64,000 nt of DNA from a virus (IMGVR_UViG_2585427773_000003), one strand, 5' to 3'; counted from the first letter of the stretch, positions 5,548 through 51,523 are shown. Numbers and translations: made by a program. Notes: a model not told the origin generated them from the letters alone.

Positions 5548-8500
5548 TTACATTTTTGCCTTCAGTTCGCGCACTTCCTCGCGCAGCTCTTTGACAGCCT
5601 CGACCAACATGCCGATAACGCCGTTGTAGTTAAGACGCAGACGAGGCTCTCCTGACTGATCGTTATGGTCAACCGTTACCAGTTCAGGCTGAACATTCTG
5701 GACGTCCTGAGCGATGAGGCCGCCAGACTGCTCATACCGGTCACAGACCTGAATCTCGTACAGAACACCTTCGATCCGATCCAGCTTGTCGAGCGCTCGT
5801 TCAATCTTGCGAATATTGCGTTTGCTACGACGGTCAGAGCGGATATAAACGTCATTAAAGCTGCCATTACCGCCACAAACCCAAGTACCATCATTCTGGA
5901 GGTATGCGTTCGCATCCGTGCCGTTTGCGGTACGTGAGTTGTTGATCATGTAAAAACCAAACTGACTGTTTCCCAAGCCACCCAAGAAGAATTTGCGATC
6001 CGCGTGGTCTTGTCTCAACAACGCTTGTGCAGAGCTTGTACTTACAGCGTTCCTCCCGAAGATGACGTTCTGGTTACGCATATCTATCCACGCGCCAGAG
6101 CCGCTGTTGATGGAAAAACGGTTGGCGTAAACCCACGCACTTGACGTGATGTCACCCGTTACACTCAACGGCTTAAGGCTTTGCAGCGTGCTATTAACGA
6201 ACCTAAAAACATGGGCGCTATTGGCGTAAACATCCAGAATGCCATCTCCGTTCTGTTTAAAGCCGGTGTCATTGTCACCCAGAACAATGGAATTACCGCC
6301 AAGAGCACTGGATGTACCGATGCCCAGTGCACCATTCAATTGACCTCCAGATAATGATAACGCCCCAACATCAGCAGCAGTCGGTTTAATGTGCGAACTG
6401 TAAATTACATATACAGTTCCATCTGTCAGGCCTGTTGGTTTATTCGCTGTATAAGTTGGTGATGTATGAATCGTTACGCTGGCGTTACTGGTATAATCCC
6501 ACTGGATATTAACACCTGTGGCGTAATTACCTATTTCTACATAAATGTCATAGGTATCACCGGATGTATTCACCCATGCAAAATTAGTAAATCCAACCGA
6601 GGTCCGTCGCCATAATGCACCAGTAATACCTTTGGGGTTCCCATTTCCTGCACGCAGAACCAGCTCAGAGATGCCTGCTTGCTGCGGGGAGCCAACGTTA
6701 AACCCTGCGCCACCAATCAGGCTTATGTAAACCACGGAACTGGCTTGTGGCATGGTTACAGTTGCCAGCTTGAACCATCCGGCACCACCACTAAAAGACA
6801 TTGTTGCTGAGTTGATCGTGCCTATAGACCTTGGAGTTAGCTCAATGTTTTTAGAACCGTCAAACGACACCCCATTTATAGTTCTAGCGGTTTGTAACTT
6901 GGTCGCTGTCGCTGCATTACCGGTTGTGTTCTGGTTACCAGCAATGTTTACACCCGGCAGGTTGATATTGGCGGAGCCATCGAATGACACGCCGCCTATT
7001 GTGCGTGCTGTTTGCAGTTTTGTTGCAGTTGCAGCATTACCGTTCAAACTACCATTGATGCCGCCAGTAACATTGAGTCCATTACCGATCGTAACAGCAC
7101 CGCTGGTATTATTAATTATAATAGGTCGCAAACCGTTCCATGAACCTAATGTGTCTCCTGATGCTGTTAGCATGAAATATGTGTTCGATCCATCATTACG
7201 GATAAAGAATCCATAGTTGCCATAGGCAATGCGCAGACCATTCGCCGATTTTGAAATAATCTCGCCAGCAGCAGTTAATCCGCCAGTTAACGCTCCTCCA
7301 GAAAGCGATAATGCTCCTACATCAGAAGCTGTTGGTTTGTTTCTAGTGTTATAAGAACGACGCCAGCCTGGCGCATAATCACTCCCATTGTACACATAAA
7401 TAAATTCCGCATTATTAACACCACCATGACCTGATGTTGTTGTCGTTGTAACACGAATAGTGTAGTGGCTTGTTGACTTATTACTAAACACCTCAATCAC
7501 GGAACCAGATAGATCGATCCTACCGCAACCAGTGTCGTCTATATAATTATTGTTGGCGTAAGCCCATGAGCACCGTGCAATCCAATATTTGTTTGAAAAT
7601 GCACCCTGATTATTTAGCCAAGTTATAAATTGAGCAGTCGTAAATGCCGTTCCGTTACCACTATTTAACCATCCAGCGGCAGCGGTTGGCGCGTTTATAT
7701 CAGCCGGCTGAGGCATAAATCCAGTCGTGTAAACCTGCTCCCAACCACTTTCAAAACCATAGCCATCTCTTGAGGAACGGTAGAACAGACCTCCATTTTT
7801 ATAGTGAGCTTTAATTTGAAGCGTACGGCAACTACCTACACCGGTATAAAAGTTGGCAAGAATATAACTTTCGCCTGTTCTAACTACATTGTAAGCACCA
7901 GATTCAGCATTCCACGGCACGCCACCATCAGCATCAGCATATGACCCTGTTGCTCTTCTTGCGAAAGCGGCAACATGCGCGGCGGTTAAAGTAATATCTT
8001 TGGAACCATCAAACTCAACACCAGAAACCCGTCTTGGCGTTTGCAGCTTTGTTGCTGTTAATGCATTACCGTTCAGACTTGCGGACAGTTTGGTTCCAAT
8101 AACCAGTTCGCCGGTTGCGTTATCAATAGAAAACGGTCTTAATGTATTCCAGCCACCATAAACATCACCTTGATTGGTAAGCAGCAGGTGAGTTTTAGCG
8201 CCATCATTACGCCATAATGCACCATACTCCCCACCTATCATTCGAATCTGATTACCACCACGCGCTACAATTTCGTCTGTGGCAAAAAGTTTTTTGCACG
8301 ACAAGTTATCGTTAACGATTAACGAATTAGACTCATAAAAACCACGCCCACTCTTAAAATCAAGGATAACGTCCGCCGCGATACATTCAGTCGCCGGATT
8401 TGTTGCCCCAAACTTATAGGTCGTATCATTAACAACGAGATCAGCACCAGGTGCGGATATTGACAGGCCATCTTCGATAAACGCAAAAACAGGGAAAGCT

Positions 8501-10401
8501 GCGCCATCAACATAGAACACAGAGCGCAAATCATCGCCCTTATTACTCATCATTATTGAGTGGATGGCTCGTTCATTGTTTTGATATTGCCAGAACATTC
8601 CATAAGCATAACGCCCCCTGTCAGTCCAGCCGCCAGGCATAACAAATCCGTTAAACTCGCAGTTATTCATCGGATCGCCTGCGGTTCGCGTTGCCGTGGT
8701 GATAATGACCCTTGATGCCAGTTCGCTTACTGAGCCAGCAGAACGCATAACAACAACAGGGTAATATTTTCCAGATGTTGCACCTGCAGGAGCGTTAACC
8801 CGCACATAACGCATACCACGCTTATCAGCAAAGTCTGTTTTACTGACCGCGTTAATGTTGTTCAGGAAGCGTCCCTTATCGGGTATATCAGCGCCGTTCT
8901 GGTCTTTCTGCAGACGTTTCTCTGCATTGTCATAGGCTGATTTTACTGCCTTTGGCGTTGCCGCCAGCGTTTCAGACGTACTGTTGGTCGCACTGCTGAG
9001 CTGTACTATCCCCTTTTTCGTCGTGCTCGCATCCTCAAGCGCCACGGCGGATGCAATATCCTCTGCCCGTTTTGCCGCTGTCTCGGCGCGCGTTGCCGCG
9101 GATTCCGCCGTACTTTTGCTCTGTGCTGCCGCCGTCGCACTGCCAGCTGCCTCTGTCGCCTTCGTGGATGCTGTCGTGGCGCTGCCCTTCGCTGCGGACG
9201 CTTGTCTGGTCGCCTCATCTTTTGAAGCAGACGCAGATGATGCCGATGACGCCGCCGAACTGGCGGACGATGCGGCAGCCGTTTTTGAGGATTCTGCGCT
9301 GGTTTCCGACGCTTTCGCGTTCGTCTCGGATGTCTTCGCTGCGGAAGCAGACCTCGCTGCTGCGCTGGCCTGTTCAGTGGCTTCGCCAGCCTTCGTTGTG
9401 GCTGTTGAAGCAGACGATGCGGCACTTTCTGCCGATTTTCCGGCGGCGGTGGCACTGGCTGAGGCCTGCCCGGCACTTGTTGACGCGGCACTGGCAGACG
9501 ACGCAGCCGCTGTTTTTGAGCCTGCCGCAGCCGAGGCGCTCTGTCCCGCTGCCGTTTCAGAAGACCTGGCGTTTGTCTCAGACGTCTTTGCCGCCTTCGC
9601 GGAATTGCCTGCCGCCGTTGCCGAGGAAGCGGCACTACTGGCGCTCGAGGCTGCGTTAGTTTCTGATGATTTCGCTGCCTCTTTTGAGGCCGCCGCATCC
9701 CGGGCTGAGGTGGCAGCTTCTGACGCTTTCGTGGTCGCGGTGGATGCAGAAGTGGCTGCAGATTTTTGTGACGCTGCAGCATTCGTTTCAGACGTTTTCG
9801 CGGCACCGGCACTGGTGGCCGCCGCGCTTTTTGAGGACTCTGCAGCGGATGCACTTTGAGACGCTTGAGAGGCTTTTTCTCCAGCGGTATTGGCGCTTTC
9901 TGCTGCTGCGGCAGCACTGGCCGCCGCCTCACGAGCTTTGTCGCCAGCAGCGTCAATCGCGTCGGTGTTATTTTTATACCACTCAACGTTTTCGTTGTGC
10001 TCGTTGACAATCTGTATCAGCGGCTTAACGGTCACTTCTGTACCGTCTTCACGCTCGATTGTCACCTCATCCAGCGCAGTCAACCAACTGCGCATGGACT
10101 TGGAATCAGCCGACATACGCGACATTAGCGCAGTAAAGCGCGCGCTAAACTGTGTTAAGTCGCCTTCATAGGTCGTAATGATTCGGCACGGAACCTCAGA
10201 CTGAGTTTCGCCGGTATAAGGTTCTGAGAGAACAATATTCGTATCGCTTATTACGCGCTTGATCTCATACAGCTTATTGTCGGGGCCAATGACGATCATC
10301 CCCGGCAACACACCATTAGCTGTTACGTTCCAGGCTGTCCCTGCCCCAACCAGAGTATTGCTACCCTGTGTAAATGTGATAGTACCTTCCCTGTACCACA
10401 T
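5548..10401 (-). CDS. Long tail fiber protein with C-terminal intramolecular chaperone (peptidase S74-like) domain
   Basis: 1617 aa; Ala/Ser-rich low-complexity coiled segment; C-terminal SDRRSKRNI...IAQDVQ...VEAVKELREEV pattern typical of self-cleaving chaperone domains. Confidence 0.75.
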   Translation of the reverse strand: MWYREGTITFTQGSNTLVGAGTAWNVTANGVLPGMIVIGPDNKLYEIKRVISDTNIVLSEPYTGETQSEVPCRIITTYEGDLTQFSARFTALMSRMSADSKSMRSWLTALDEVTIEREDGTEVTVKPLIQIVNEHNENVEWYKNNTDAIDAAGDKAREAAASAAAAAESANTAGEKASQASQSASAAESSKSAAATSAGAAKTSETNAAASQKSAATSASTATTKASEAATSARDAAASKEAAKSSETNAASSASSAASSATAAGNSAKAAKTSETNARSSETAAGQSASAAAGSKTAAASSASAASTSAGQASASATAAGKSAESAASSASTATTKAGEATEQASAAARSASAAKTSETNAKASETSAESSKTAAASSASSAASSASSASASKDEATRQASAAKGSATTASTKATEAAGSATAAAQSKSTAESAATRAETAAKRAEDIASAVALEDASTTKKGIVQLSSATNSTSETLAATPKAVKSAYDNAEKRLQKDQNGADIPDKGRFLNNINAVSKTDFADKRGMRYVRVNAPAGATSGKYYPVVVMRSAGSVSELASRVIITTATRTAGDPMNNCEFNGFVMPGGWTDRGRYAYGMFWQYQNNERAIHSIMMSNKGDDLRSVFYVDGAAFPVFAFIEDGLSISAPGADLVVNDTTYKFGATNPATECIAADVILDFKSGRGFYESNSLIVNDNLSCKKLFATDEIVARGGNQIRMIGGEYGALWRNDGAKTHLLLTNQGDVYGGWNTLRPFSIDNATGELVIGTKLSASLNGNALTATKLQTPRRVSGVEFDGSKDITLTAAHVAAFARRATGSYADADGGVPWNAESGAYNVVRTGESYILANFYTGVGSCRTLQIKAHYKNGGLFYRSSRDGYGFESGWEQVYTTGFMPQPADINAPTAAAGWLNSGNGTAFTTAQFITWLNNQGAFSNKYWIARCSWAYANNNYIDDTGCGRIDLSGSVIEVFSNKSTSHYTIRVTTTTTSGHGGVNNAEFIYVYNGSDYAPGWRRSYNTRNKPTASDVGALSLSGGALTGGLTAAGEIISKSANGLRIAYGNYGFFIRNDGSNTYFMLTASGDTLGSWNGLRPIIINNTSGAVTIGNGLNVTGGINGSLNGNAATATKLQTARTIGGVSFDGSANINLPGVNIAGNQNTTGNAATATKLQTARTINGVSFDGSKNIELTPRSIGTINSATMSFSGGAGWFKLATVTMPQASSVVYISLIGGAGFNVGSPQQAGISELVLRAGNGNPKGITGALWRRTSVGFTNFAWVNTSGDTYDIYVEIGNYATGVNIQWDYTSNASVTIHTSPTYTANKPTGLTDGTVYVIYSSHIKPTAADVGALSLSGGQLNGALGIGTSSALGGNSIVLGDNDTGFKQNGDGILDVYANSAHVFRFVNSTLQSLKPLSVTGDITSSAWVYANRFSINSGSGAWIDMRNQNVIFGRNAVSTSSAQALLRQDHADRKFFLGGLGNSQFGFYMINNSRTANGTDANAYLQNDGTWVCGGNGSFNDVYIRSDRRSKRNIRKIERALDKLDRIEGVLYEIQVCDRYEQSGGLIAQDVQNVQPELVTVDHNDQSGEPRLRLNYNGVIGMLVEAVKELREEVRELKAKM

Positions 10402-29284: not shown

Positions 29285-30859
29285 TCACTCGTTCTCTTGA
29301 GTAGATGAGTCCCCATTCCCTCGGGGTTGATCTTGCCCGCTTTCTTGGGCCGTACCACGATCATAAGTAAGTACTGACTTATTTTCAAGGGTATTTAGAT
29401 CATTTTTTGGAGGAAAATTCAAGAGATCTTTATCAAATTCCTTTTTCATCGCCTCAGTAATGTTCGGGAAAATCTTCTCAATAAGCATTTCCATCTGGTG
29501 ACGACGTACAGAGTCCGGTGCCTGAAGTAATGACAGTTTCTCGGCAACAGAAAATTCATCAGTAAGGCCACGAATATCGAAACTTTCTGGATACGCAATT
29601 AAAGAGTGGTCTTCGTCCAGATCTGCCCCCATCCATTTCGCAACCAGTAGCATGATTTGGCGTTCAGCCCTTTCCAGACGCTCTGCTTTTGTGACAAGCA
29701 AGCTATTTACACGCTGGAAGTCATACATTTTTGCGGCACCAGATGAATTATCGATTCCCTGTGCGTTGTCCTGCTTCGTTCGCTCACCAGCTACACCAAC
29801 TGAATGGTAGATTTCGTTAATCACCGTCTTAATCGTAGTGATGATCATCTGAGCTTGTTTCGGGTCTGGTGACAGATAAAACGGCTGGTTTCCACCTTCA
29901 GAATCGTAGGTGAAGACTCGCTTTGTGCCCATTTCAAGCACTTTAGTGTGGTTTTCATCACCAGGTAAAAGCGACTGTACCGGTATAGCCAACTGGCTAA
30001 ATGTCTGATCCTGAATAATGGCATCAAGGTTTGACAGATAGTTTGCAACCGCACGATCAAGATAAGCGATATCATCGATCAACGATGGGCTGAAATACGG
30101 TGATTCACTTTCTCCAATACAATCAACAGGAAACACAGGAACTACGCCGAGATTATGCTCACCGCTATCCTCTAAAATAACTTTTGCCTGACGGCGACCT
30201 GCTCCACCAGCGCCCTTCTTCACTTCCTCACGGAACAGATACCACTCGTTTTGTGTCCACAGACGATAACGTTGGTATTCCTGACCTGTAGAAGTAAAAG
30301 GATCTGCGTCATCACGAGCGACTTCCACAATTAACGCCCACAACATATTCCCGTCGTCGTCCCATGCCACATCCAACATTTGCTGAGGTGAAATCCAGTA
30401 GGCGTAGGCGCGAGCATCTTTCTTTTTCTCGTCAGCTACTGACTCAACATCACCACTCATCGTGCTATCGACAACAACCCATATGCGACCGTAAATAGAC
30501 GACTGCAAATCAATAGCGGCCATAAATGAGTCAATAGAGGCATTCTGGCGAGTCGCACGTTTCCAGAAATTGCGGATCTGCTCTGGTGCCTCTTCGATAT
30601 TTCTATGAATGTCTTCTTTAAAGAGATATTTGTTGATGAGGTTTACCACCTCACGAGTGTGGTTGAAGCGATAAGCACGTTCAACTCGCTCCTTAAACTC
30701 CTGATCTCCCTCTTTAAAGTAACGAAAGATATTGTCTGTAAACCAACCACGCCCGCCAGCGTAAGTGCTGGCGAGGAAGTCCCAATGTTCTTTTTTCTTT
30801 TCGTATTCCGGGTGGCGTCGCGCCACCAGATCCTTAATTTGTTTGTCGTTCAATTCCAT
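29285..30859 (-). CDS. Portal protein
   Basis: 524 aa, position after terminase large subunit. Confidence 0.7.
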   Translation of the reverse strand: MELNDKQIKDLVARRHPEYEKKKEHWDFLASTYAGGRGWFTDNIFRYFKEGDQEFKERVERAYRFNHTREVVNLINKYLFKEDIHRNIEEAPEQIRNFWKRATRQNASIDSFMAAIDLQSSIYGRIWVVVDSTMSGDVESVADEKKKDARAYAYWISPQQMLDVAWDDDGNMLWALIVEVARDDADPFTSTGQEYQRYRLWTQNEWYLFREEVKKGAGGAGRRQAKVILEDSGEHNLGVVPVFPVDCIGESESPYFSPSLIDDIAYLDRAVANYLSNLDAIIQDQTFSQLAIPVQSLLPGDENHTKVLEMGTKRVFTYDSEGGNQPFYLSPDPKQAQMIITTIKTVINEIYHSVGVAGERTKQDNAQGIDNSSGAAKMYDFQRVNSLLVTKAERLERAERQIMLLVAKWMGADLDEDHSLIAYPESFDIRGLTDEFSVAEKLSLLQAPDSVRRHQMEMLIEKIFPNITEAMKKEFDKDLLNFPPKNDLNTLENKSVLTYDRGTAQESGQDQPRGNGDSSTQENE

Positions 30860-36454: not shown

Positions 36455-38014
36455 ATGACTGTTCGGATTGTATCTAACGCAGTAAATGCGCTTATTTCTG
36501 GCGCAGATGACAAGGTAAAGCAACTGGTGCAGCAAATGTTGAGCTACGAAGTCGAGACTGGCGACTGGAAGGGCACAAGCACGATGTTCAACTGGAGTAA
36601 AAACTCGTTCCCTGCTGGCTTTGCCAAGCCTGTAGCGGCGAACTTGAACAAGGCGGGCATCAAATGTGTTCATATCCGCAAAGACAAAGCCCCGGCGCTT
36701 GGTAAACCAAATCCGGCGGTTAACCCATTCCCATACAATCCTGATTATGCGTATCAGGATCAGACTGTGGAAACACTGGTTCGAGAGGGAATGATGATTG
36801 CGCAGATCGCTACTGGTGGCGGGAAATCTAACGTTGCCTGCAAAGCAGCTGCACGTATCGGTCGAATGACATTATTTTTAACAACCCGCTCTGTTCTGAT
36901 GTTTCAAATGGCCGAAAACTTCCAGAGATCCATCGACTACCGCGCCGAAAATGGCGAACCGTGGTTAAAGGGCCAAAAGGTTGGAGTCATTGGCTCGGGG
37001 GAGTTCCAGGTATCACGACATATCAACGTCGCTACAGTTCAAACTCTGGCAAGTTTCCTTGAAGAACCACCACGCGATGCAACACCAGATAAAAAGAGCT
37101 ACCATCTCAAACGTCGGGAGTTGGTGAAACGCTTCCTTTCAAGTGTGTCTCTGCTTATTCTGGAAGAAGCGCATGAGTCTTCAGGCTCTAATTTCTATGA
37201 CATTGCCAGATTATGTGTGAACGCAGACTATCGTCTGGCGCTTACAGCCACGCCGTTCATGAAGGATTCGACGGAAGCCAACATGCGCCTGATGGCGGTG
37301 GCCGGGCGAATTGAAATTAAAGTCACAGAAAAGTACCTGATTGATCGAGGCATTCTGGCAAAGCCGTACTTCCTTTATCATAAAGTTGCCTACAAGCCAG
37401 ACGAGGCCAGAATCAAGGCCGAACTTGCCAACAAACACCTCAATTTTAGAGTTGGTATGAGCACCGCCTACCAAAAGGCTTATCAGTTGGGGATCGTGTA
37501 TAATTTGGGACGTAACGAGGCCATAGTGCGCGAGGCATTGCTTTATAAGCAACATTCACTCAACTGCATGACTCTGGTTCGTCTTAAACGCCACGGGCAA
37601 ATCCTGATGGAGATGATGAAGGAGTCAGGTCTTAAAGTTGATTTCATCTATGGGGAATCTAACCAGACGACAAGGCAAGCAAAGCTGAATAGTTTAGCGT
37701 CTGGTGAAATAGATGTTTTAATAGGCTCGACTATTCTGGATGTTGGTGTTGATGTGCCAAGCGTTGGTGCGGTCATTCTTGCTGGTGGTGGGAAAGCAGA
37801 AGTTGAAATGAGACAGCGTGTCGGTCGTGGCTTACGAGCCAAAAAAAATCAGGCAAACGTGTGTTTTATCACTGATTTCATTGACATTAGCAACAAATAC
37901 CTGTTGTCTCACTCTTATGAGCGAAAACACATCATCGACACCACACCTGGCTTTGCAGAAGGTGTATTGCCTATTGATGGAGCATTCGATTTTGGAGTTC
38001 TGAAACGAGATTAG
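36455..38014 (+). CDS. SF2 (DEAD/DEAH-type) helicase
   Basis: Walker A ATGGGKS, LEEAHE (motif II), TATP (motif III), QRVGRGLR (motif VI); RBS aaggaaagagg. Confidence 0.75.
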   Translation: MTVRIVSNAVNALISGADDKVKQLVQQMLSYEVETGDWKGTSTMFNWSKNSFPAGFAKPVAANLNKAGIKCVHIRKDKAPALGKPNPAVNPFPYNPDYAYQDQTVETLVREGMMIAQIATGGGKSNVACKAAARIGRMTLFLTTRSVLMFQMAENFQRSIDYRAENGEPWLKGQKVGVIGSGEFQVSRHINVATVQTLASFLEEPPRDATPDKKSYHLKRRELVKRFLSSVSLLILEEAHESSGSNFYDIARLCVNADYRLALTATPFMKDSTEANMRLMAVAGRIEIKVTEKYLIDRGILAKPYFLYHKVAYKPDEARIKAELANKHLNFRVGMSTAYQKAYQLGIVYNLGRNEAIVREALLYKQHSLNCMTLVRLKRHGQILMEMMKESGLKVDFIYGESNQTTRQAKLNSLASGEIDVLIGSTILDVGVDVPSVGAVILAGGGKAEVEMRQRVGRGLRAKKNQANVCFITDFIDISNKYLLSHSYERKHIIDTTPGFAEGVLPIDGAFDFGVLKRD

Positions 38015-38790: not shown

Positions 38791-39315
38791 ATGACAACCA
38801 AAGATATTACCTACGGTATCCAAGCTGAACTCTGGCCGCGAGATTACACTAACGTTGAAAAACTACTGATGTTCTGGCGCAGAGAACAAATTCCTGTAAG
38901 GGTCACTCTCGAAGATGGCCAGGCGTTTTGCATGTACGTTTATGGCCTCATGCCATCTCGTAACAAAGTTGACCTTTGCCCAGCCCCTTTTGACAAAGAA
39001 AATCGTATAAGGCTCCCACTTGAACGCATTAGTACAATTGAATCAGGTGTGGTTGACAGTATCGCTCACGATTTCAAAGGTCGACTAACAGTTCACCCTG
39101 ATTATGTCGATAATCGGCCATCACGCCGCGATTTTTTTGCAATTTGCAACCAAGCCTACAAAGCAAACAAATCTATAAGGGTGTACATGGCGGATGGCCG
39201 TGAAATTGAGGGGGTGTCAGCAGGTGCAGATGCTTGTCAGGTTACACTACGTGTCGAGAACGGTAGAAAAATAGTTGTTTTGTTCGATTGGGTTGAACGA
39301 ATTTTGCCTTTTTGA
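38791..39315 (+). CDS. Hypothetical protein
   Basis: 174 aa ORF, ATG 5 nt after lipoprotein stop. Confidence 0.4.
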   Translation: MTTKDITYGIQAELWPRDYTNVEKLLMFWRREQIPVRVTLEDGQAFCMYVYGLMPSRNKVDLCPAPFDKENRIRLPLERISTIESGVVDSIAHDFKGRLTVHPDYVDNRPSRRDFFAICNQAYKANKSIRVYMADGREIEGVSAGADACQVTLRVENGRKIVVLFDWVERILPF

Positions 39316-40834: not shown

Positions 40835-41065
40835 ATGTTTGTTCTTATCGCTGGCGTTAACGTCCATAATGAATATTATGTTAATCGCATCGCTGGGATC
40901 GCTGGTTACGCTGGGCGCGTAGTCGAGCTTATAGATGAAACGACGCGCAAAATTGACTTATTGAGCGACCAGGAGCGAAAAAAAGCAGACGTGAACGACG
41001 CTGATCTATTTTTAATGTTAAAAGCGTTCGTAGAAATGGGATTTAAAATCAGTTTACACAAATAA
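40835..41065 (+). CDS. Hypothetical small protein (moron gene 3)
   Basis: 76 aa; RBS taaggag. Confidence 0.45.
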   Translation: MFVLIAGVNVHNEYYVNRIAGIAGYAGRVVELIDETTRKIDLLSDQERKKADVNDADLFLMLKAFVEMGFKISLHK

Positions 41066-41070
41066 AATCG

Positions 41071-41096
41071 AGCGCCCACTATGGGCGCTTTTTTCG
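41071..41096 (+). terminator. Rho-independent terminator
   Basis: agcgcccactatgggcgct hairpin plus tttttt. Confidence 0.7.
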
Positions 41097-41115
41097 TTTC
41101 CAATACTTCCACAAT

Positions 41116-41141
41116 AACGCGCCATCAATGGCGCGTTTTTT
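41116..41141 (+). terminator. Second tandem terminator
   Basis: aacgcgccatcaatggcgcgtt hairpin plus ttttt. Confidence 0.6.
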
Positions 41142-41539
41142 ATTGTCTTTAACTCACTCCAACAACATAAAAATAAGCGCCAAAATAACGCCATAGACGC
41201 GCTTTTATATCCTTGCCAGTACATACCCATTACTTAACACATTAACGCGCTTAAAACGCGTTATAGCGCATAGTTAATCATTGGCTTTTAGTCTTGCTTT
41301 ATGATCCGCGTTTATTTGTCGGTGCGGATCGGTATTTTGTTTTGTTCTGTATCCGCTCGCGTATTATGTGCGCGTGATTTTTCACATAATCACACCACTT
41401 AATCACGTATGTGATTATGCTACGAAAGAAATCTGGATGTCTCAGGTGACGAAAGTCATCATAATTTTCCCCGCTCACCTGTCCGACAACCGCTGGTTGG
41501 ATTCCACCAGCTTCCCGATGTTTTTTTCTACACAAAGGC

Positions 41540-41665
41540 AAATGCAGCCGTTTCCCGAAAAAATCCTGGCCGTTCCCCGTCGGCTCATGAATACGTTCCT
41601 CGCCGCTTCTGAAAATTTCCCTGCGGCAGCTGGTGGCTATAGAGAAAGGGCCGTTTCTGGCCCTC
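41540..41665. repeat. Iteron-like direct repeats, cluster A
   Basis: Repeated GCCGTTTCCCGAAAA-like units at about 20-bp spacing. Confidence 0.45.
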
Positions 41666-41672
41666 TTCTCAG

Positions 41673-42155
41673 TTACACGCCATCAAGGATGTGGATGCGG
41701 TTGCTTGCGTATACATTCAGCATAAAGTTAGCGCAAAACAGTTTCCATGTATCAACGCCAGCGGTATACGTAATGTTTTTGCATTTAATTGCATTGTTGG
41801 CGATCCGCATCCCCTGCGATACTGCTTCATCGTCGGAAAATTTGAACGACGATTGAGTTTTAATCCAGACAGAAATCTGCGTAGCGAACTCAATCAGCTT
41901 GGACTGGCAGAATCGCCCGGAGCGCACCGGAAAGACGAACGTTCCGAATCCAGAATTTACCACATACGCTTTCTCAAATACCCGCGAGTAACGACGATTG
42001 CCAATGATGTCGCGTGCAATAATGCATTTTTCTTGTGCTGACAGTTCTACCGTCTCATTGTCGCGCCATGCACCAAGTACTCGTTTTTCAATGTCAGAGA
42101 ACGTTACAGCGATATTGCCATGTGCGGGTGCGTTTACAGTAGCGATAAAATTCAT
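41673..42155 (-). CDS. Hypothetical protein
   Basis: 160 aa ORF; operator-like motif 42177-42189 just upstream. Confidence 0.45.
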   Translation of the reverse strand: MNFIATVNAPAHGNIAVTFSDIEKRVLGAWRDNETVELSAQEKCIIARDIIGNRRYSRVFEKAYVVNSGFGTFVFPVRSGRFCQSKLIEFATQISVWIKTQSSFKFSDDEAVSQGMRIANNAIKCKNITYTAGVDTWKLFCANFMLNVYASNRIHILDGV

Positions 42156-42359
42156 GATTAATTCCTTATCGTAAATAACAAATTGTTTTCTTGTTGGTGT
42201 TAATTATCGTTGTACGAATAAGGCGTCAAAGTGGAAAGTTGCGGTAGCCGGACGGGAACAGGTGGGTTTGTCGGTTGCCTGGAGGTAAGAGGTTGGTGTT
42301 TTTAGCCTGCGGGAAACAAGATGGTCATTTAAGGCCACCAATGCTGATGGCCTTAATAA

Positions 42360-42503
42360 TTATCGCACGATTACGCTAAGGATCTTTTCCTCAACTGATT
42401 TGTTGTTGCGACTAAACTGCCTTGCGTATCTGATGACAGAAGAGGCGTTTTGCTTTCTGACCATCTCGGCTCTTTCCTTCAGGCGTTTCTTGAAATCGCC
42501 CAT
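42360..42503 (-). CDS. Possible small basic protein (47 aa)
   Basis: ATG at 42503, basic composition; below ORF-track size cut-off. Confidence 0.2.
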   Translation of the reverse strand: MGDFKKRLKERAEMVRKQNASSVIRYARQFSRNNKSVEEKILSVIVR

Positions 42504-42505
42504 AT

Positions 42506-42880
42506 TTACCACCAGGCGCAGAAGGTCAGTCTGTTATTGTGAAAGTCGTGGTTCTTAATCAGATCTTCCACAAGCTCTTTCAACTGCCCCACATCATGCC
42601 AGTAACCTTCATCGTACTCCTGACTGCCGAAGAAAAAACCTTCCCGGGTAGGCAAGTACTCTTCGCAATTACTTTCGTTTATGTGCATCAAATGAGCCTT
42701 CAGAAAACAAATGTCATTCATCGTTAATTCTAAAAGCTCACAATTTTCGACTTCACCTACGTTGCGCTCCATCCACCCAACGAGCGCATTGAACTTACGG
42801 AAGTAAGCAACCTGCTTTCTGGATGCCTCGTTATTCAGATCGTTTTTAGGTTGTGTCTCGATATAGATATCAAGTCCCAT
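42506..42880 (-). CDS. Hypothetical protein
   Basis: ORF starting MGLDIYIETQ. Confidence 0.4.
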   Translation of the reverse strand: MGLDIYIETQPKNDLNNEASRKQVAYFRKFNALVGWMERNVGEVENCELLELTMNDICFLKAHLMHINESNCEEYLPTREGFFFGSQEYDEGYWHDVGQLKELVEDLIKNHDFHNNRLTFCAWW

Positions 42881-42997
42881 GATGGTTTCCTTATTAAGTT
42901 GCTTCAGTGAAATCATTTTCACAAATCAGATAAGGCAGAAAACAAATTGTTATCGGGCTTAATAAAATGGCGCGGTTTACGCGCCATTTAAAGAGGA

Positions 42998-43393
42998 TTA
43001 AGCGAATACGCTTTCAGGGATTAAGGTGTCGGCAGGAATGCCAGAGGTAATGCGCAGGCCGTACTGACCAATCCAGGTAGTGTTGGTATTCAGGTTGGAG
43101 GCGAATACGGTGTTAACCATATTCATCATGGTTTCAAACACCTCTTCATCAACCTGGCGGAAGTAGTTCTCGATTTTCAGCAGCAGCGGGTCAGTTGCAT
43201 CGAAAATAGACTGGTATTGAGTCGCGTACTCGCCGCCGGAGGCATCACCTTTACGCACGATCGTACTGGCCTGGACTTCGGCACCAGTTTCGGTGTTGTA
43301 CGTAACAACGGTGATTTTTGCCACATTCTTACCTTCGGCGGTTTCAGAGGCATAGTAAACATCAACTGTCAGTTTTTCGCGTTTAACGGTCAT
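42998..43393 (-). CDS. Hypothetical protein
   Basis: ATG at 43393 with RBS ggagag; palindrome 43437-43452 upstream. Confidence 0.45.
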   Translation of the reverse strand: MTVKREKLTVDVYYASETAEGKNVAKITVVTYNTETGAEVQASTIVRKGDASGGEYATQYQSIFDATDPLLLKIENYFRQVDEEVFETMMNMVNTVFASNLNTNTTWIGQYGLRITSGIPADTLIPESVFA

Positions 43394-43436
43394 TTCACTC
43401 TCCGTAGTGTTTTGGTTATTTTTATATTCTATGATA

Positions 43437-43452
43437 GTAAGTATGTACTTAC
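43437..43452. promoter_or_regulatory. Palindrome GTAAGTAtgTACTTAC
   Basis: 44-59 bp upstream of start at 43393. Confidence 0.45.
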
Positions 43453-43455
43453 AAT

Positions 43456-43486
43456 ACAAAAAAGCCCCGTAAGGATGGCGGGGCTG
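43456..43486 (-). terminator. Rho-independent terminator
   Basis: Stem agccccg/cggggct, T-tract on minus strand. Confidence 0.6.
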
Positions 43487-43519
43487 TCGTACTGTCGACT
43501 AATTGCCACTTGCACATTA

Positions 43520-43831
43520 TCAGGCTATTGCCATCACTGATGCTCTCTGAATCTCTTGCTGGGCCACGCGGTTAACTTCCATCAAAGCCAGTTCGAGCTG
43601 ATGTTCCGGCCACATTCTTTGAAATGCCACCCAGCCTTTTCCACGCTGGCGACGAACATTCATTACATAACGAGTAAAGGTGTTTTTATCGAAAGACACC
43701 GCTGTTTCACGGAACAGACGAATAGAGGTTCCATTGGCAACGATGTCCAGCAAAGTTAATTGAGCAACCAGCGCAGGCTTCTCTTTTCTCTTCTGGTCTT
43801 TGTCCAGACCAAGAACCAATGATTTTTTCAT
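43520..43831 (-). CDS. Hypothetical protein
   Basis: ORF with RBS ggag; conserved 65-bp upstream module (43843-43905) paralogous to 44327-44395. Confidence 0.45.
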   Translation of the reverse strand: MKKSLVLGLDKDQKRKEKPALVAQLTLLDIVANGTSIRLFRETAVSFDKNTFTRYVMNVRRQRGKGWVAFQRMWPEHQLELALMEVNRVAQQEIQRASVMAIA

Positions 43832-43984
43832 TACAACTCCGTAAACAACTTGTTTTCTCAATGGCGTAAATAATACCAGTAAGAAAACGGCTACAAAGCA
43901 TATTGATCAGGTGCATGAGCGATATGCAGGTTCTTCCCTGCGGCTATAGAGAAATTAAGCCAGCATTGCTGGCTTTGGTTGGGG

Positions 43985-44314
43985 TTACTCGAATACTTCA
44001 AGAAACTCCTGAACGTCCCAATGCTGGACGAGGTGAAGATAGACCTTAGAAATCACGTCATTTTCGCTATCGCATGTGAAGTAGTACTTCTGGCTGCGGT
44101 TGTATGTGTCCACACAAAATTCGCTCATATCCATAAAGTCAGCATCTTCACCCAGGTCGCTGATCATCAAAGCAGGTGCGTCATCACGAGTCATCAGTTC
44201 CAGCACCCATCTTGAATTGATCAGAGTGGAAGACCAACCTTCTAACTCATAAAACTGATCAAACTCTTTTTGAGTTAATTTCTTGATTTGGTTGATGTCG
44301 ATATTTGTAAACAT
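43985..44314 (-). CDS. Hypothetical protein
   Basis: ATG 44314 with RBS aagga. Confidence 0.45.
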   Translation of the reverse strand: MFTNIDINQIKKLTQKEFDQFYELEGWSSTLINSRWVLELMTRDDAPALMISDLGEDADFMDMSEFCVDTYNRSQKYYFTCDSENDVISKVYLHLVQHWDVQEFLEVFE

Positions 44315-44452
44315 AAAGCAATCCTTAAACATGTTGTTTTCTGAATTGCGTAAACAATACCAGTAAGAAAACGGCCACAAAGTATATCGTTACGGTGTTG
44401 CGCTGCCCGGAGGTTAATAGCGACAAAAGCCACCGTGCTGGTGGCCTCACTC

Positions 44453-44671
44453 TTAATCTTCGTCGCCCGGGAACTCGCTGTGTACCGCGTCCACCAGCTC
44501 CCGCTTTTCATCTTCACTCAGCAGGTGCCAGATATCCTTCCCTTTGGGCGATTCCCCTTCTGCCGGGACGAACGACCACAACTTGCGGTACAACTCCGGC
44601 CCCACTGCATCCAGACACTCAGCCAGGGAATCCACGCCCCACACCTCAACCGTCACAGGCATCTTAATCAT
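44453..44671 (-). CDS. Hypothetical small acidic protein
   Basis: 72 aa; operator-like motif 44704-44718 upstream. Confidence 0.4.
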   Translation of the reverse strand: MIKMPVTVEVWGVDSLAECLDAVGPELYRKLWSFVPAEGESPKGKDIWHLLSEDEKRELVDAVHSEFPGDED

Positions 44672-45049
44672 CTCTTCATCCTCACTTCGTTTATATAACG
44701 TCTAAACATGTTGTTTACTTGTTGGTGTTATTATCGCAATAAGACAAAGGCGGAAAAGGATTTTATTCCGGTGAATGTGGTTTTGGCAGTGAGTTTTCAG
44801 GTTCAGTACCGAGTACACTTTTTACATTATTCTGATTTAGTGGCCGAATGTGGCTGGTGGCAGAGTAATCCTCTCCCCAAAAACCTACTGAAATCGATTG
44901 TGACCCGTTGGCTGTCTGGCACAATTACGCTGTAGCTGGGCATTCAGAGGGAATCCAGCGGTAAGCAAGTCCGCCTACGTGAGCGCCTCTCTTCTTCCCG
45001 CACATTACAGGTGGGTAGCCGCAACTCTCCCTCTCGCTATACCGGTACG

Positions 45050-45190
45050 CCACCGTTCCTGAGCCGGCATCGAGCCTTTTCCCGAAATCCACACAGGCAA
45101 CTCGACCGTTTCCCTGAAAACCTCCAGCCGTTCCCCGAAGGCAACCCAGCCGTTTCTGTAGCGGGATGCAGCCTTTTCCCTGTATGGACC
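45050..45190. repeat. Iteron-like direct repeats, cluster B
   Basis: Six units resembling (A/C)GCCGTTYCCCKGAA at about 21-23 bp periodicity. Confidence 0.5.
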
Positions 45191-45239
45191 GAAGGCTGAC
45201 CGTAGGGGTGTTACGGGGGGATAAAATCAGGAGTTGAAT

Positions 45240-46230
45240 AAATACGAAAAAGGAGGCGACACCCCTCCTTCCCTCCCCACTTATACATACCTGGCTTCTT
45301 CGCTATACATGTTGTGTTTTATCTGTCTCAACCTCTCTATAGGCGTTAATGCTCACTCCTTCCAGAATGTTCTATACGGCGACTATTTCTGTTGGTGAAT
45401 TGGGTGTGTTGTTTTCTCTGTCGGTGTATGTGGTTTCGTTCGTTTTGCGGTGGTTCTTCTATGGGGTGTTCTCGTCGTTTTGGTGATTGTTCTTCTCCGT
45501 GTATGGAGTAATGGCAGGTGGGCGATTCCTTTCGTTATTGTGTTTGAGTTGTTTGTCTGGAGTGTGTGAAAGGCTTTTGTAGTTATTCGTGTATTGGGTA
45601 ATGGCGTTTCCCGTGATTGTTATGCTTCGAGTCTTTTGGGATTGAGAGAATCCTTGCGGTTACAGGCTTCGTTGGGGTTTCAGTGATTCTGGTGTTTCTT
45701 CGCTGTTTGGGGAATGGCGTGTCGTGGGTATCGCGCGTATGAATGTTTTCGGATTGCCTGTGAAAGTTAGGTTGGTTGTCCGGTAGCCTGGGGAGAAGAG
45801 GTGGGTCTTTTCGGTAGCCTGCCATAAAGAGGTTGGTTGTTTTGGGTAATGGCATATGTGTTATTTAGTTGTTTTGTTATACCTGAAAATATGTTGTTTA
45901 TATGGTTGTGTAACGCAACGGGAGCGATTTTGAGCGTGTGTTTTTGTTGGTAGTGTGTTGAGTCGTCTGTGGTGAAAATTGGACTCTGTGGCGCTGTCTG
46001 CTGCGTAGAGTTACGGGTATAAGCAGTGATGTGTGAAAACGTCAATTTTTTAGACCAAATCGGGTGAAAGCGTTGATGTTTCGTTGATCTGTTATTCAGT
46101 TGTTTTCTTGATTGTATAAACAACTATAACTTATTGATATTTAAGGATGTGATTGCAGGTATTGAAGGGGAGTAGTGGCGATCAACGGATTCTTATAGAA
46201 AAGAATCAAATTGTGACCGCCATTATCAAT
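45240..46230. other. GT-skewed non-coding tract with dispersed repeats
   Basis: Strong G+T bias on plus strand; repeated GGGTAATGGC-like units about 100 bp apart; ORFs here are low-complexity and implausible. Confidence 0.5.
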
Positions 46231-46233
46231 GTT

Positions 46234-51229: not shown

Positions 51230-51523
51230 TATATTGAAGCTATATATTTTTGAACTCTATCTCTTAAAAAAGATGTTAATAAGATGCTAACTATTGAAAG
51301 GCATAAATATATACAATTCAAACAAACGTTATTTTTAACAAATTTTTTCTTCCCATTGACTTTTTCGAACGCCTTGTCCGGTCTAAAGTGCGCAGAAGTC
51401 ACTTTTTCCTTCCTGAGTTATCCACAGGCTTATGCACTTGCATGAAAAATCTATTCACACTATCTTAATTCGCAAGACACTGATGTTGCAGTATTGAGGG
51501 TATGTTGGGTTAAAAATAGACAT

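Follow-up and report, generated by a model that had tools for sequence, protein, structure and literature searches.

What do two clusters of short direct repeats, and the strand-asymmetric DNA beside one of them, do in a phage-plasmid? The window, by which we mean the whole 64-kb stretch of DNA analysed, comes from an SSU5-like phage-plasmid of E. coli and is 98% identical to pERB3f3 and phage Cyrano/pLF82; the phage-plasmid genome is ~108 kb. Phage-plasmids of gut bacteria (SSU5, pHCM2, pLF82) form the family that keeps the arrays and the G+T tract, which are unannotated there. A sequence-only reading had proposed a replication origin of the iteron type, a binding array for a regulatory protein or a non-coding RNA locus. 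The repeat clusters, tract and dispersed motif it described were all found where it placed them, and above chance. The arrays, a second repeat (B), the dispersed motif (C) and the 0.7-kb asymmetric tract are non-coding, occur throughout the SSU5 family and are separate from the RepA replicon. The arrays and tract are most likely protein-binding, transcription-driven control DNA of the lytic phase, possibly a lytic origin.

The left part of the locus contains the following features.

41065..41672, no strand: NCR-1, 608 bp non-coding, where the + strand UvsW-helicase operon meets the - strand small-gene block (convergent)
41070..41137, + strand: two tandem intrinsic-terminator hairpins (41070-41090 and 41116-41137) at the end of the + strand operon
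41221..41235, - strand: invariant GTACATACCCATTAC, containing an inverted copy of the C-motif core GTAATGG
41547..41660, + strand: A-repeat array 1, GCCGTTTCCC-like units at 41547, 41569, 41602 and 41650
41673..42155, - strand: 160-aa gene (phrog_1641), A array downstream and B array upstream, retained in pMT1
42177..42231, - strand: phage-type promoter/operator motif (GATAAT.. AAGAAAACAAnTTGTT), immediately 5' of the 160-aa gene
42239..42330, + strand: B-repeat array 1, three to four ~30-bp units, CGGTAGCC(T/G)G-N9-GAGGTGGGT-like
42360..44671, - strand: six small genes, 50-136 aa, mostly acidic

Mean column identity across NCR-1 is 75% in six lineages. Weak, sub-threshold Rfam matches to isrK and suhB/mmgR at 41070..41137 were judged to be terminator look-alikes. 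Of the six small genes, most come with a promoter motif and a terminator of their own. The sequence-only reading saw no Rep-like initiator nearby, and this was borne out: the genes flanking the arrays have no Rep domain and no Pfam or functional PHROG assignment, and AlphaFold models of two flanking proteins matched no DNA-binding or Rep fold.

A units were scored on the + strand as 10-mer matches to GCCGTTTCCC with at most 2 mismatches. This gave starts at 41547, 41569 and 41650, and at 45074, 45105, 45127, 45149 and 45171; direct reading of the sequence added degenerate units at 41602 and 45052, making four units at 41547-41660 and six at 45052-45190. The spacing is 22, 33 and 48 bp in array 1 and 22, 31, 22, 22 and 22 bp in array 2, so the 21-23 bp periodicity reported earlier describes part of the arrays and fails at the 31-, 33- and 48-bp gaps. 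TRF makes no call on the arrays because their spacers are too variable. Allowing at most 1 mismatch, CCGTTTCCC has 18 matches in 128 kb (both strands), six of them inside the two ~130-bp array stretches and on a single strand, and the A repeats are absent from the rest of the ~108-kb Cyrano genome, the surroundings of repA included. The arrays lie 3.4 kb apart in one orientation and bracket the 160-aa gene and the six-small-gene block. The last unit of array 1 overlaps the terminator hairpin of the gene at 41673-42155, and an invariant Chi site (41629-41636) lies inside that array.

Across genera the A-repeat cores are invariant while the spacers vary freely, and no RNA structure or covariation was found over the A repeats, which supports the earlier suggestion of a regulatory-protein binding array. 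Within array 2, five of the six aligned lineages agree fully over CCGTTTCCCTGAAAACCTCCAGCC, and the Klebsiella row has two substitutions. We infer that the A repeats are putative sites for a phage DNA-binding protein, on one helix face in most lineages, and that the B repeats probably are too. This second family, which the sequence-only reading missed, consists of 30-bp units, CGGTAGCCTG..GAGGTGGGT, at 42239-42330 and 45752-45843.

The right part of the locus is a single long non-coding region.

44672..46233, no strand: NCR-2, 1,562 bp, non-coding
44704..44760, - strand: promoter/operator motif serving the last small gene; several relatives have a mosaic breakpoint here
44853..44860, + strand: Chi site, kept in 4-5 of six lineages, about 200 bp left of A array 2
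44898..44925, + strand: candidate rightward sigma-70 promoter, TTGTGA-16-CACAAT (in relatives TTGAGA-16-CAGAAT)
45052..45190, + strand: A-repeat array 2, six units at 45052, 45074, 45105, 45127, 45149 and 45171
45247..45273, - strand: terminator-like hairpin and T-run (aaggagg..cctcctt), limited to the window's lineage
45262..45289, - strand: conserved G-tract block GTATAAGTGGGGAGGGAAGGAGGGG (C-tracts on the + strand), between the tract and A array 2
45300..46015, no strand: strand-asymmetric tract, + strand 67-73% G+T
45497..45858, + strand: C motif, ..TGTATGGAGTAATGGC(A/G).., four dispersed copies, cores at 45508, 45598, 45711 and 45846
45752..45843, + strand: B-repeat array 2, two clear units and one degenerate, 30-31 bp each
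45862..45911, - strand: degenerate leftward promoter/operator copy, intact in relatives (TATAAGAAAACAAnTT plus palindrome AAACAAnTTGTTT)
46016..46045, - strand: leftward promoter-like site TTGACG-N18-TATACC, hexamers kept, spacer variable
46094..46125, - strand: further leftward copy of the promoter/operator motif
46177..46231, no strand: conserved right-end block TGGCGATCAACGG..TCTTATAGAAA..TGTGACCGCCA.TCAA

NCR-2 was found in 245 of 5,426 complete E. coli genomes, every time on plasmids, and bears no annotated feature in RefSeq plasmids. Its tract is the strongest skew anomaly of the genome, with a GC skew of +0.37 to +0.46 and an AT skew of -0.30 to -0.56 over 45350-46100. The whole-genome skew check proposed earlier bears this out: the tract is the sole 1-kb bin with strongly inverted skew in Cyrano (-135 G-C per kb, the rest of the genome being at about +25). 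Where sequence identity has fallen to 59-69% the skew is still there, and no substitution class is commoner than G<->T. The GGGTAATGGC-like motif occurs four times in the window and three to seven times in relatives. The hairpin noted earlier is indeed present and terminator-like on the minus strand, although relatives do not conserve it. Open reading frames in the tract keep neither position nor frame among six lineages, and with no conserved ORF a protein-coding role is rejected.

The region is clearly conserved in related elements; a lack of conservation would have counted against the earlier reading. Relatives from Salmonella, Klebsiella, Enterobacter and Cronobacter have the arrays, the 30-bp repeat, the GTAATGGC motif and the skew as well, and L172, whose flanking protein is 51% identical, retains the arrays, B repeats, C motif, skew and right-end block. 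The hexamers at 46016..46045 are kept in six aligned lineages and also, by reading its sequence, in L172 (first hexamer TTGACA). The hexamers of the rightward sigma-70 candidate are conserved, with a variable spacer, in five of six lineages, and it is not recognisable in L172. The promoter/operator motif occurs genome-wide, and copies of it point into the tract.

The transcription of the tract in lysogens can be judged from published work. In strand-specific RNA-seq of the Cyrano lysogen, CYRAN_103, inside the tract on the leftward strand, is at the floor (log2(fpkm+5)=2.32), and the adjoining cargo gene CYRAN_102 is expressed (PMC9928086). The leftward strand of the tract was at the expression floor in 10 of 10 lysogen samples (PMC9928086). 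A lysogenic transcript is not supported by this evidence; an unstructured transcript made from the region in the lytic phase is possible.

These results suggest, tentatively, that NCR-2 and array 1 form a cis-acting region used outside lysogeny, a lytic-phase origin activated by transcription. A phage protein would occupy the A repeats, and probably the B repeats, while the phage-type promoters that point leftward from the right end of NCR-2 would be silent in the lysogen. Upon induction or infection, transcription from these promoters would run leftward through the tract, giving an untranslated, unstructured, C-rich and G-poor transcript that would meet the conserved G-tract block immediately before A array 2. 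It may there open or prime the DNA next to the array and its bound protein, in the manner of lambda ori, P1 oriL, ColE1 or T4 oriF. Replication would then proceed leftward, co-directional with nearly all genes, and array 1, 3.4 kb away, could be a second pairing site, like crr for P4 ori.

Several observations count towards a lytic origin: the conserved architecture and kept skew, the absence of coding or folded RNA, the leftward promoter-like sites and their silence in the lysogen, and the G-tract block between tract and array 2. The element also has an annotated replisome of its own, for which its depositors list UvsW, UvsY, a gp32-like SSB, a RecA-like protein, RNase H, a DnaB-like helicase, a primase and Pol III alpha; their annotation includes no recognised lytic initiator and no mapped lytic origin. 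Also counted are the complete RepA replicon elsewhere, the maintenance of Y. pestis pMT1 as a plasmid without A array 2 and the tract (weak evidence, as the same deletion removed about 25 kb), and the cumulative GC skew, which is monotonic across the whole genome and compatible with one-directional replication along the gene direction, though gene orientation alone can explain it. Against an origin, no initiator was found among the flanking proteins, a conserved AT-rich unwinding element was not found, DnaA boxes are not enriched, the replication genes are far from NCR-2, and the A units of L172 are about 27 and 34 bp apart, not 22. A C-rich leftward RNA favours Rho loading over a stable R-loop; the direction that would be prone to R-loops is rightward, where the sole candidate promoter is not conserved in L172.

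Another reading we consider nearly as likely as a lytic origin, though again doubtful: a purely transcriptional control or insulator (attenuator) region with no part in replication. The A and B arrays would be operators or roadblocks where a phage regulator binds on either side of the early small-gene block, perhaps looping out the 3.4 kb between, and P2 Cox or 186 Apl, single small regulators that bind direct-repeat arrays at two loci, offer a precedent. The tract would be a long untranslated C>G 'bubble' that loads Rho, which would stop leftward transcripts from the cargo genes and the NCR-2 promoters before the early genes, barring an antiterminator or an inhibitor of Rho. When 200-nt windows on both strands of the 64-kb window are ranked by C/G, the top twelve all fall in the tract (C 31-36%, G 10-15%). 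Its predicted leftward RNA (A 40%, C 31%, G 14%, U 15%) is untranslated and nearly unstructured, with a fold of -119 kcal/mol for 776 nt (z = -0.6). B array 1 is directly upstream of a promoter, the promoter/operator motif occurs at every small gene and inside NCR-2, and transcript levels drop between CYRAN_102, an expressed cargo gene, and CYRAN_103, which is at the floor. NCR-2 itself lies exactly at the border between conserved genes and variable cargo expressed in the lysogen. However, expression is already at the floor where the tract begins, which makes 0.7 kb of rut-like sequence look excessive, and the window also has an intrinsic terminator. Most small genes have promoters of their own and do not obviously need a gated leader, no regulator was found, and the conserved C motif and G-tract block are left unexplained.

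A functional RNA seems improbable. It would be an unstructured transcript of ~0.7-1 kb, CA-rich if leftward or GU-rich if rightward, that would serve as a sponge or decoy for an RNA-binding factor, for instance Rho, Hfq, the FljA/Hfq-like protein encoded nearby, an RNase or a toxin. The composition of the tract is better conserved than its sequence, promoter-like sites lie on both sides, the repeated C motif could be a binding module, and 6 kb away is a FljA-family gene (PF03614) whose product has a weak Hfq-like C-terminus. The non-coding RNA locus of the earlier reading, whether structured or expressed in the lysogen, nevertheless gains little from the RNA tests. There was no Rfam family match, no fold signal in the tract on either strand, and no covariation over the array region, the part of NCR-2 that the test covered; a structured RNA is rejected on these grounds. 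Hfq (ARN)n, AAYAAYAA, CsrA GGA and MazF ACA motifs were not enriched beyond composition in five lineages. The leftward strand is silent in the ten lysogen samples, and A cores with variable spacers resemble DNA sites, not RNA modules.

We hold it equally unlikely that the region is chiefly an element for recombination or module exchange, a homologous anchor for cargo swaps at its right edge, with the G+T-rich strand and nearby Chi a hot spot for recombination-dependent replication or repair. RecA-type proteins prefer the G+T-rich strand, and T4-like recombination genes are annotated in the element. The right border is exact, homology to relatives ending within about 3 nt of 46231 beside at least 10 different cargo neighbours; mosaic breakpoints occur at the promoter motif near 44700, and a 330-bp piece of NCR-2 accompanies DUF262 and type I R-M cargo in large Klebsiella plasmids. 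Chi is 8-fold enriched within the window, with a conserved site beside both arrays. However, the arrays of pMT1 and L172 lack Chi, and the site at 44853 is oriented to act on RecBCD arriving from the right, so that it would protect the DNA left of the tract but leave the tract unprotected. Phages often show mosaic borders at the ends of genes, for which a dedicated site is not required, and phased arrays and promoters are left unexplained.

Least likely is a role in maintaining the prophage as a plasmid, be it as the iteron origin first proposed, as copy-control (handcuffing) arrays or as a partition centromere: two gene-bracketing arrays of direct repeats ~two helical turns apart do resemble P1 incC/incA and F ori2, and two ParB-N-domain genes lie ~5 kb from array 1, but no Rep or Par gene is between or beside the arrays, the annotated parA is elsewhere (Cyrano 29307-29975), the RepA replicon about 33 kb away has its own 14 unrelated 21-bp iterons (CTCTCTAYAGTGGATA) on both sides of repA and no A repeats, DnaA boxes are not enriched, and pMT1 is maintained without A array 2 and the tract.

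Compared with known systems, the region shares with the P1, F and RepFIB iteron replicons, whose origin and copy-control iterons flank rep, direct repeats with conserved cores about 22 bp apart and two same-orientation arrays around a gene set. It differs in that a Rep gene is missing from the arrays' surroundings and from the space between them, in having neither enriched DnaA boxes nor a conserved AT-rich element, in belonging to an element with just such a replicon elsewhere, and in that array 2 is dispensable for plasmid maintenance in pMT1. Like the P2 Cox and 186 Apl arrays, its direct repeats lie at two separate loci near promoters in a temperate phage, but their spacing is about 22 rather than about 10.5 bp, and there is no integrase or att context and no candidate small HTH protein. 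With Rho-dependent terminators and attenuators (rut, 'C>G bubble') the tract shares the prediction of a long RNA that is rich in C, poor in G, unstructured and untranslated, and nowhere else in the window is as extreme; it runs to about 0.7 kb against the usual ~80 nt of rut sites, and has conserved repeated motifs.

Other parallels concern the lytic origin that we tentatively favour. At P4 ori/crr and SPP1 oriL/oriR the same initiator-binding repeats occur at two loci kilobases apart; the initiator gene of P4 lies between its two sites, and one SPP1 origin is inside the initiator gene. The protein that would bind the A repeats here is a putative one. By analogy, the present phage, which carries a helicase and primase of its own and has one short repeat in two like-oriented clusters 3.4 kb apart, may be similarly arranged. 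The remaining class is that of transcription-activated or RNA-primed origins, comprising lambda ori with pR, P1 oriL with P53, ColE1 RNA II, the T4 oriF/oriG R-loops and mitochondrial LSP-CSB. The leftward RNA here is C-rich and not G-rich, and the lambda and P1 origins, unlike this region, lie inside initiator genes. Shared with this class are promoter-like sites, silent in lysogens, which face a non-coding region bounded by a G-tract block beside the repeats, in an element annotated with both UvsW and RNase H.

NCR-2, the non-coding region at 44672-46233, holds three families of repeats, and nowhere else in its genome is the strand asymmetry as extreme. Over the 6 kb around it, E. coli plasmids such as pERB3f3 share 98% identity with the window, and phage-plasmid records, Cyrano (pLF82 of strain LF82) and CMS-2020a among them, 97-98%. 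These SSU5-like phage-plasmids are ~108 kb long, lead an IncFIB-type plasmid life and can grow as siphoviruses (PMC9928086); resistance genes have been reported on them (PMC9600943).

Gene order around NCR-1 and NCR-2
36455-38014, plus strand: UvsW-type helicase, first gene of its operon (record annotation)
38791-39315, plus strand: FljA-family regulator of the same operon (PF03614, E = 1.5e-84)
41065-41672: NCR-1, a convergent non-coding region (annotated records)
41673-44671, minus strand: seven small genes, function unassigned (annotated records)
44672-46233: NCR-2, 1,562 bp with no RefSeq feature, followed to the right by variable cargo

Within the 22 kb of pERB3f3 that were examined, no unannotated gap is longer than NCR-2. 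Every RefSeq row examined is feature-free there, while the Cyrano record has two hypothetical ORFs. NCR-2 is matched by 839 plasmid records from Escherichia, Klebsiella, Enterobacter, Salmonella (pHCM2 of S. Typhi), Citrobacter and Cronobacter, with no Yersinia record among them, and almost all the matches listed have nothing annotated beneath. Among complete E. coli genomes 245 of 5,426 carry it, on a plasmid in every case. The FljA-family gene at 38791-39315, whose family is named 'repressor of phase-1 flagellin', shows a weak Hfq-like match at its C-terminus and, in every relative seen, has the UvsW-like helicase as a neighbour; the phage-plasmid may thus carry an RNA-binding regulator.

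The sequence-only reading had placed two iteron-like clusters here, and the GCCGTTTCCC-like units do lie at those positions, every unit on one strand. Their core is CCAGCCGTTTCCC, and we call them A repeats.

A repeats in the two arrays
41547, 41569, 41602 and 41650, plus strand: array 1 in NCR-1, four units spaced 22, 33 and 48 bp
45052, 45074, 45105, 45127, 45149 and 45171, plus strand: array 2 in NCR-2, six units spaced 22, 31, 22, 22 and 22 bp

An iteron origin of the Rep_3, RepA or RepFIB class has at least three direct repeats of ~17-22 bp at regular spacing, and so do these arrays. The units have just a 10-13-nt core in common, with free spacers, and TRF called no tandem array. With one mismatch allowed, the 9-mer core matches 18 times in the 128 kb of the two strands, and six of the 18 fall within the two array stretches of ~130 bp; no further array was found in the rest of the Cyrano genome. 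The GGGTAATGGC-like motif of the sequence-only reading (C motif) is present in four copies; a sigma-54 reading of its TGGCA core was rejected by eye because the spacing is wrong. The hairpin of that reading is terminator-like on the minus strand but is confined to the lineage of the window. A second repeat family, missing from that reading, consists of ~30-bp B units (CGGTAGCCTG..GAGGTGGGT) at 42239-42330 and 45752-45843. A type III toxin-antitoxin locus with ToxI-like repeats was considered and set aside: the units are a short core with free spacers, TRF was negative and no ORF follows on the strand.

Absence from related elements was to count against a function, and the region is clearly conserved, both in an alignment of NCR-2 from six lineages (59-71% identity) and in L172, the most distant locus compared. 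Within the alignment the A cores are invariant and their 10-bp spacers vary freely. The 24-mer CCGTTTCCCTGAAAACCTCCAGCC is unchanged in five of the six lineages, with two substitutions in the Klebsiella row, and the B units, the C motif, a plus-strand C-tract block, two promoter-like sites and a right-end block are also kept. The rest of the tract, the G+T-rich plus strand at ~45300-46015, drifts. NCR-1 shows the same pattern of conservation. In L172 a flanking protein of 160 aa is only 51% identical, yet A units stand in both places, together with three B-like units of 30 bp (GCCTG-N12-GAGTGGTGT), a C-like motif (GATGGCAGGTA), a 0.75-kb tract with 64-72% G+T and the right-end block. Its NCR-1 also holds a tandem array of ~11 bp (TTTAGCCA / TTTAGCAG / TTATAGC units; 9690-9760 of the reverse complement) that is absent from the window. 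A strict array pattern, searched in viral contigs, matched only SSU5-like loci, and a looser two-unit pattern gave only chance matches in genome contigs.

These invariant cores and free spacers, at both ends of the small-gene block, bear out the suggestion of a regulatory-protein binding array. The A repeats are robustly predicted to be binding arrays, acting at the DNA level, that flank the block, and the B repeats are probably DNA-level binding arrays too. We looked for the binding protein among ten of the flanking proteins. Pfam and PHROG searches gave no functional assignment except the FljA-like regulator and a DUF5983 domain, and no Rep domain, in agreement with the earlier remark that no Rep-like initiator lies nearby. 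The most basic and best conserved candidates, of 103 and 160 aa, have homologues confined to the SSU5 family and no relatives in a PDB sequence search. Their AlphaFold models (pLDDT 79 and 85) gave no significant Foldseek match in the PDB, and none to a Rep or winged-helix fold.

The right edge of NCR-2 (46177-46233) is sharp to ~3 nt, directly after ..TGTGACCGCCAnTnTCAAYG, and is met by at least ten unrelated cargo neighbours. The right-end block there contains an inverted repeat; its arms vary from lineage to lineage and are still complementary in two. A 330-bp piece of NCR-2 (window 45781-46110) also occurs in large non-phage Klebsiella plasmids, at 6001-6337 of locus L003 (IncFIB/HI1B plasmid NZ_CP092410.1) and in L010, where it adjoins a DUF262 gene and a type I R-M system. 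The same cargo is found in Klebsiella SSU5-like elements, which implies that it moved with part of NCR-2. At the other end, four loci (L011, L022, L048 and L049) have a mosaic breakpoint at window 44695-44705: their last small gene shares 87-95% identity with the window and NCR-2, from the promoter motif on, only 67-73%. Such mosaics suggest module exchange at the repeated promoter element.

Chi (GCTGGTGG) is ~8-fold enriched, with 16 copies in the window against 1.9 expected and 24 in the 108-kb Cyrano genome, a density equal to that of the E. coli chromosome; its strand bias varies from region to region. One Chi site lies inside array 1 (41629-41636) and another 200 bp to the left of array 2 (44853-44860), and both are kept in most lineages, though not in L172 or in pMT1, the Y. 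pestis relative, where the array-1 copy is mutated to ACTGGTGG.

The strand asymmetry seen in the sequence-only reading is real: over 45350-46100 the GC skew is +0.37 to +0.46 and the AT skew -0.30 to -0.56. In 1-kb bins of the complete Cyrano genome the tract is the single bin that strongly opposes the genome-wide skew trend. Read leftward, that is, on the minus strand, it takes in the twelve 200-nt windows of the 64 kb that are richest in C and poorest in G, with C/G up to 3.1 (window median 0.98, 99th percentile 1.9). Over ~0.7 kb the leftward RNA would have 34-40% A, 29-33% C, 14-18% G and 14-17% U in the lineages compared. The skew is retained, with 60-73% G+T in every lineage, and exchange between G and T is the commonest or joint-commonest class of substitution within the tract. 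That the tract is maintained for strand composition is a robust reading. The tract is non-coding, as had been proposed; open frames shift in place and frame among the six lineages and RefSeq annotates none, so a protein-coding role was rejected. Descent from a decayed copy of a neighbouring gene was rejected as well, since no match rose above chance (E >= 0.27) when the six small proteins were compared by tblastn with the NCR-2 sequences from seven lineages.

The Cyrano genome has 15 copies of a directional motif, (C/T)ATAAGAAAACAAnTTGTTTA, that includes a 13-bp palindrome; shuffles have 2.1. The motif always sits 25-45 nt upstream of a start codon. The genes downstream include terS, parA, the DnaB-like helicase, RNR beta and each of the small genes, and the motif is probably the family's promoter and an operator for a global regulator.

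Promoter-like and related features
2093, 32816, 42177, 42941, 43844, 44328, 44705, 47328, 47379, 59238 and 59967: (C/T)ATAAGAAAACAAnTTGTTTA sites in the window
45862-45911 and 46094-46125, leftward into the tract from the right end of NCR-2: two to three (C/T)ATAAGAAAACAAnTTGTTTA copies, partly degenerate in the window
46016-46045, leftward: promoter-like TTGACG-N18-TATACC, hexamers kept in the six aligned lineages, spacer variable
44898-44925, rightward: candidate promoter, conserved in five lineages, not in L172
45262-45289, leftward strand: conserved G-tract block GGGGAGGGAAGGAGGGG, with 0.7 kb of C-rich sequence upstream

Reading the L172 sequence showed both hexamers of the 46016-46045 site there too. 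The -10 elements of the leftward promoter-like sites in NCR-2 are imperfect.

In strand-specific data from LF82 (PMC9928086), CYRAN_103, an ORF called in the tract, is at the floor in LB (log2(fpkm+5)=2.32) and does not exceed 4.3 in any of the ten samples; CYRAN_102, the cargo gene next to it, stands about six-fold over background. Strand coverage in these published lysogen data thus gives no lysogen-expressed transcript, and the proposal of a non-coding RNA locus finds no recognisable or structured RNA either. Across the whole window Rfam gave no match at gathering thresholds. The sub-threshold matches to isrK and suhB/mmgR at 41067-41151 in NCR-1 (20-22 bits, gathering 41-50) were judged look-alikes of two tandem terminator hairpins. 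The tract folds no better than shuffles on either strand (z = -0.6 and +1.4), and RNAalifold of the array region returned an unfavourable covariation term of +5.67. A structured ncRNA was rejected on these results. Hfq, CsrA or MazF sponge motifs were also rejected, being not enriched beyond composition.

The arrays recall iteron plasmid origins, and this reading was rejected because the element has its RepA replicon, with unrelated iterons, at another place and because of a deletion in pMT1. RepA is ~33 kb from the arrays. Its own 21-bp iteron, CTCTCTAYAGTGGATA, is present in 14 copies placed to both sides of the gene, in the classical P1/RepFIB layout, and is unrelated to the A repeat. pMT1 (locus L051, NC_003134.1, 36276-38751), a maintained plasmid of the SSU5 family, retains NCR-1 with array 1 and, of the small genes, two. 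An IS1541-associated deletion has taken the remaining ones together with array 2 and the tract, and beyond it the sequence runs into hypothetical and AAA-ATPase/metallophosphoesterase genes. DnaA boxes are not enriched (126 observed in the window, 136 expected) and form no cluster in NCR-1 or NCR-2, and the sole AT-rich stretch that might serve as an unwinding element, 46100-46170, is not conserved in relatives. The only DnaA-box-like cluster of the window is three 9-mers in 42 bp at 51418-51459 (TTATCCACA, TTATGCACT, CTATTCACA), near an S24 LexA-like peptidase gene. Cumulative GC skew, suggested as a check, is monotonic over the whole Cyrano genome and follows gene orientation, and therefore locates no origin. 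A partition centromere of the parC, parS or sopC kind was likewise set aside, with parA at Cyrano 29307-29975, no par gene between the arrays and array 2 missing from pMT1.

We tentatively rank first the possibility that NCR-2 is a lytic-phase, transcription-activated origin. It is placed there because lysogen-silent candidate promoters would read into a long non-coding region abutting iteron-like arrays, because the second array lies kilobases away, because the element is annotated with its own replisome, UvsW and RNase H genes without a mapped lytic origin, and because leftward replication would run in the direction of almost every gene. As the leftward promoter-like sites point into the tract, a leftward transcript would run through it to the G-tract block. 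This transcript would be untranslated and silent in lysogens, as was observed, and would cross ~0.7 kb of C-rich tract, then the G-tract block at 45262-45289, and then array 2. Counting against such an origin, we found no unwinding element and no initiator, and the C-rich leftward RNA favours Rho loading over an R-loop.

For this last reason a role in transcription alone ranks close behind, though still doubtful in itself: a Rho-dependent attenuator or insulator, with operator and roadblock arrays, that would separate the early genes from the expressed cargo. Rho-dependent terminators have C well above G over an untranslated, unstructured stretch of at least 80 nt, and the tract has this too. 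An unlikely further reading is a new kind of phage lytic origin or control element keyed on composition rather than sequence, in which a long unstructured non-coding RNA would meet the G-tract block and a protein-bound array; this repressor-gated, C-rich RNA might prime or open the origin, or titrate Rho in the lytic switch. We give little weight to an unstructured decoy RNA and just as little to a recombination or cargo-exchange anchor. A plasmid-maintenance element is the least credible of all; array 2 and the tract are robustly predicted, by the indirect test of pMT1, a plasmid that lacks both, to be dispensable for plasmid life.

Each component is familiar by itself, be it the iteron-like arrays, the phage promoters and operators or the rut-like composition. 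The unusual point is that they occur together, along with a 0.7-kb tract that keeps its composition from genus to genus, in a phage-plasmid family common in the clinic. The searchable literature on origins, iterons, sRNA and transcripts of SSU5, pHCM2 and pMT1 does not describe the NCR-2 region, and searchable papers do not describe the switch from low-copy plasmid to lytic amplification for SSU5-like elements. These phage-plasmids are common in clinical Enterobacteriaceae. Were NCR-2 a lytic origin or a gate for early genes, it would offer a handle on induction, copy-number bursts and cargo gene dosage, a typing marker for intact and defective elements (pMT1 lacks NCR-2), and a defined DNA bait for its binding protein.

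The lytic-origin reading has possible parallels in known systems. An RNA that primes or opens an origin, as the composition-keyed version would require, may be an analogue of the mitochondrial LSP-CSB or herpesvirus oriLyt RNAs. In RNA-primed or transcription-activated origins such as ColE1, T4 oriF/G, lambda and P1 oriL, a promoter reads into the origin and a G-rich RNA segment or a lasting RNA-DNA hybrid marks the start; the candidates for such parts here are the leftward promoter-like sites, with their imperfect -10 elements, and the G-tract block, with its C-rich sequence upstream. At P4 ori/crr and SPP1 oriL/oriR one protein-binding repeat stands at two loci kilobases apart, and the A repeat, found in the whole genome solely at 41547-41660 and 45052-45190, is arranged likewise.
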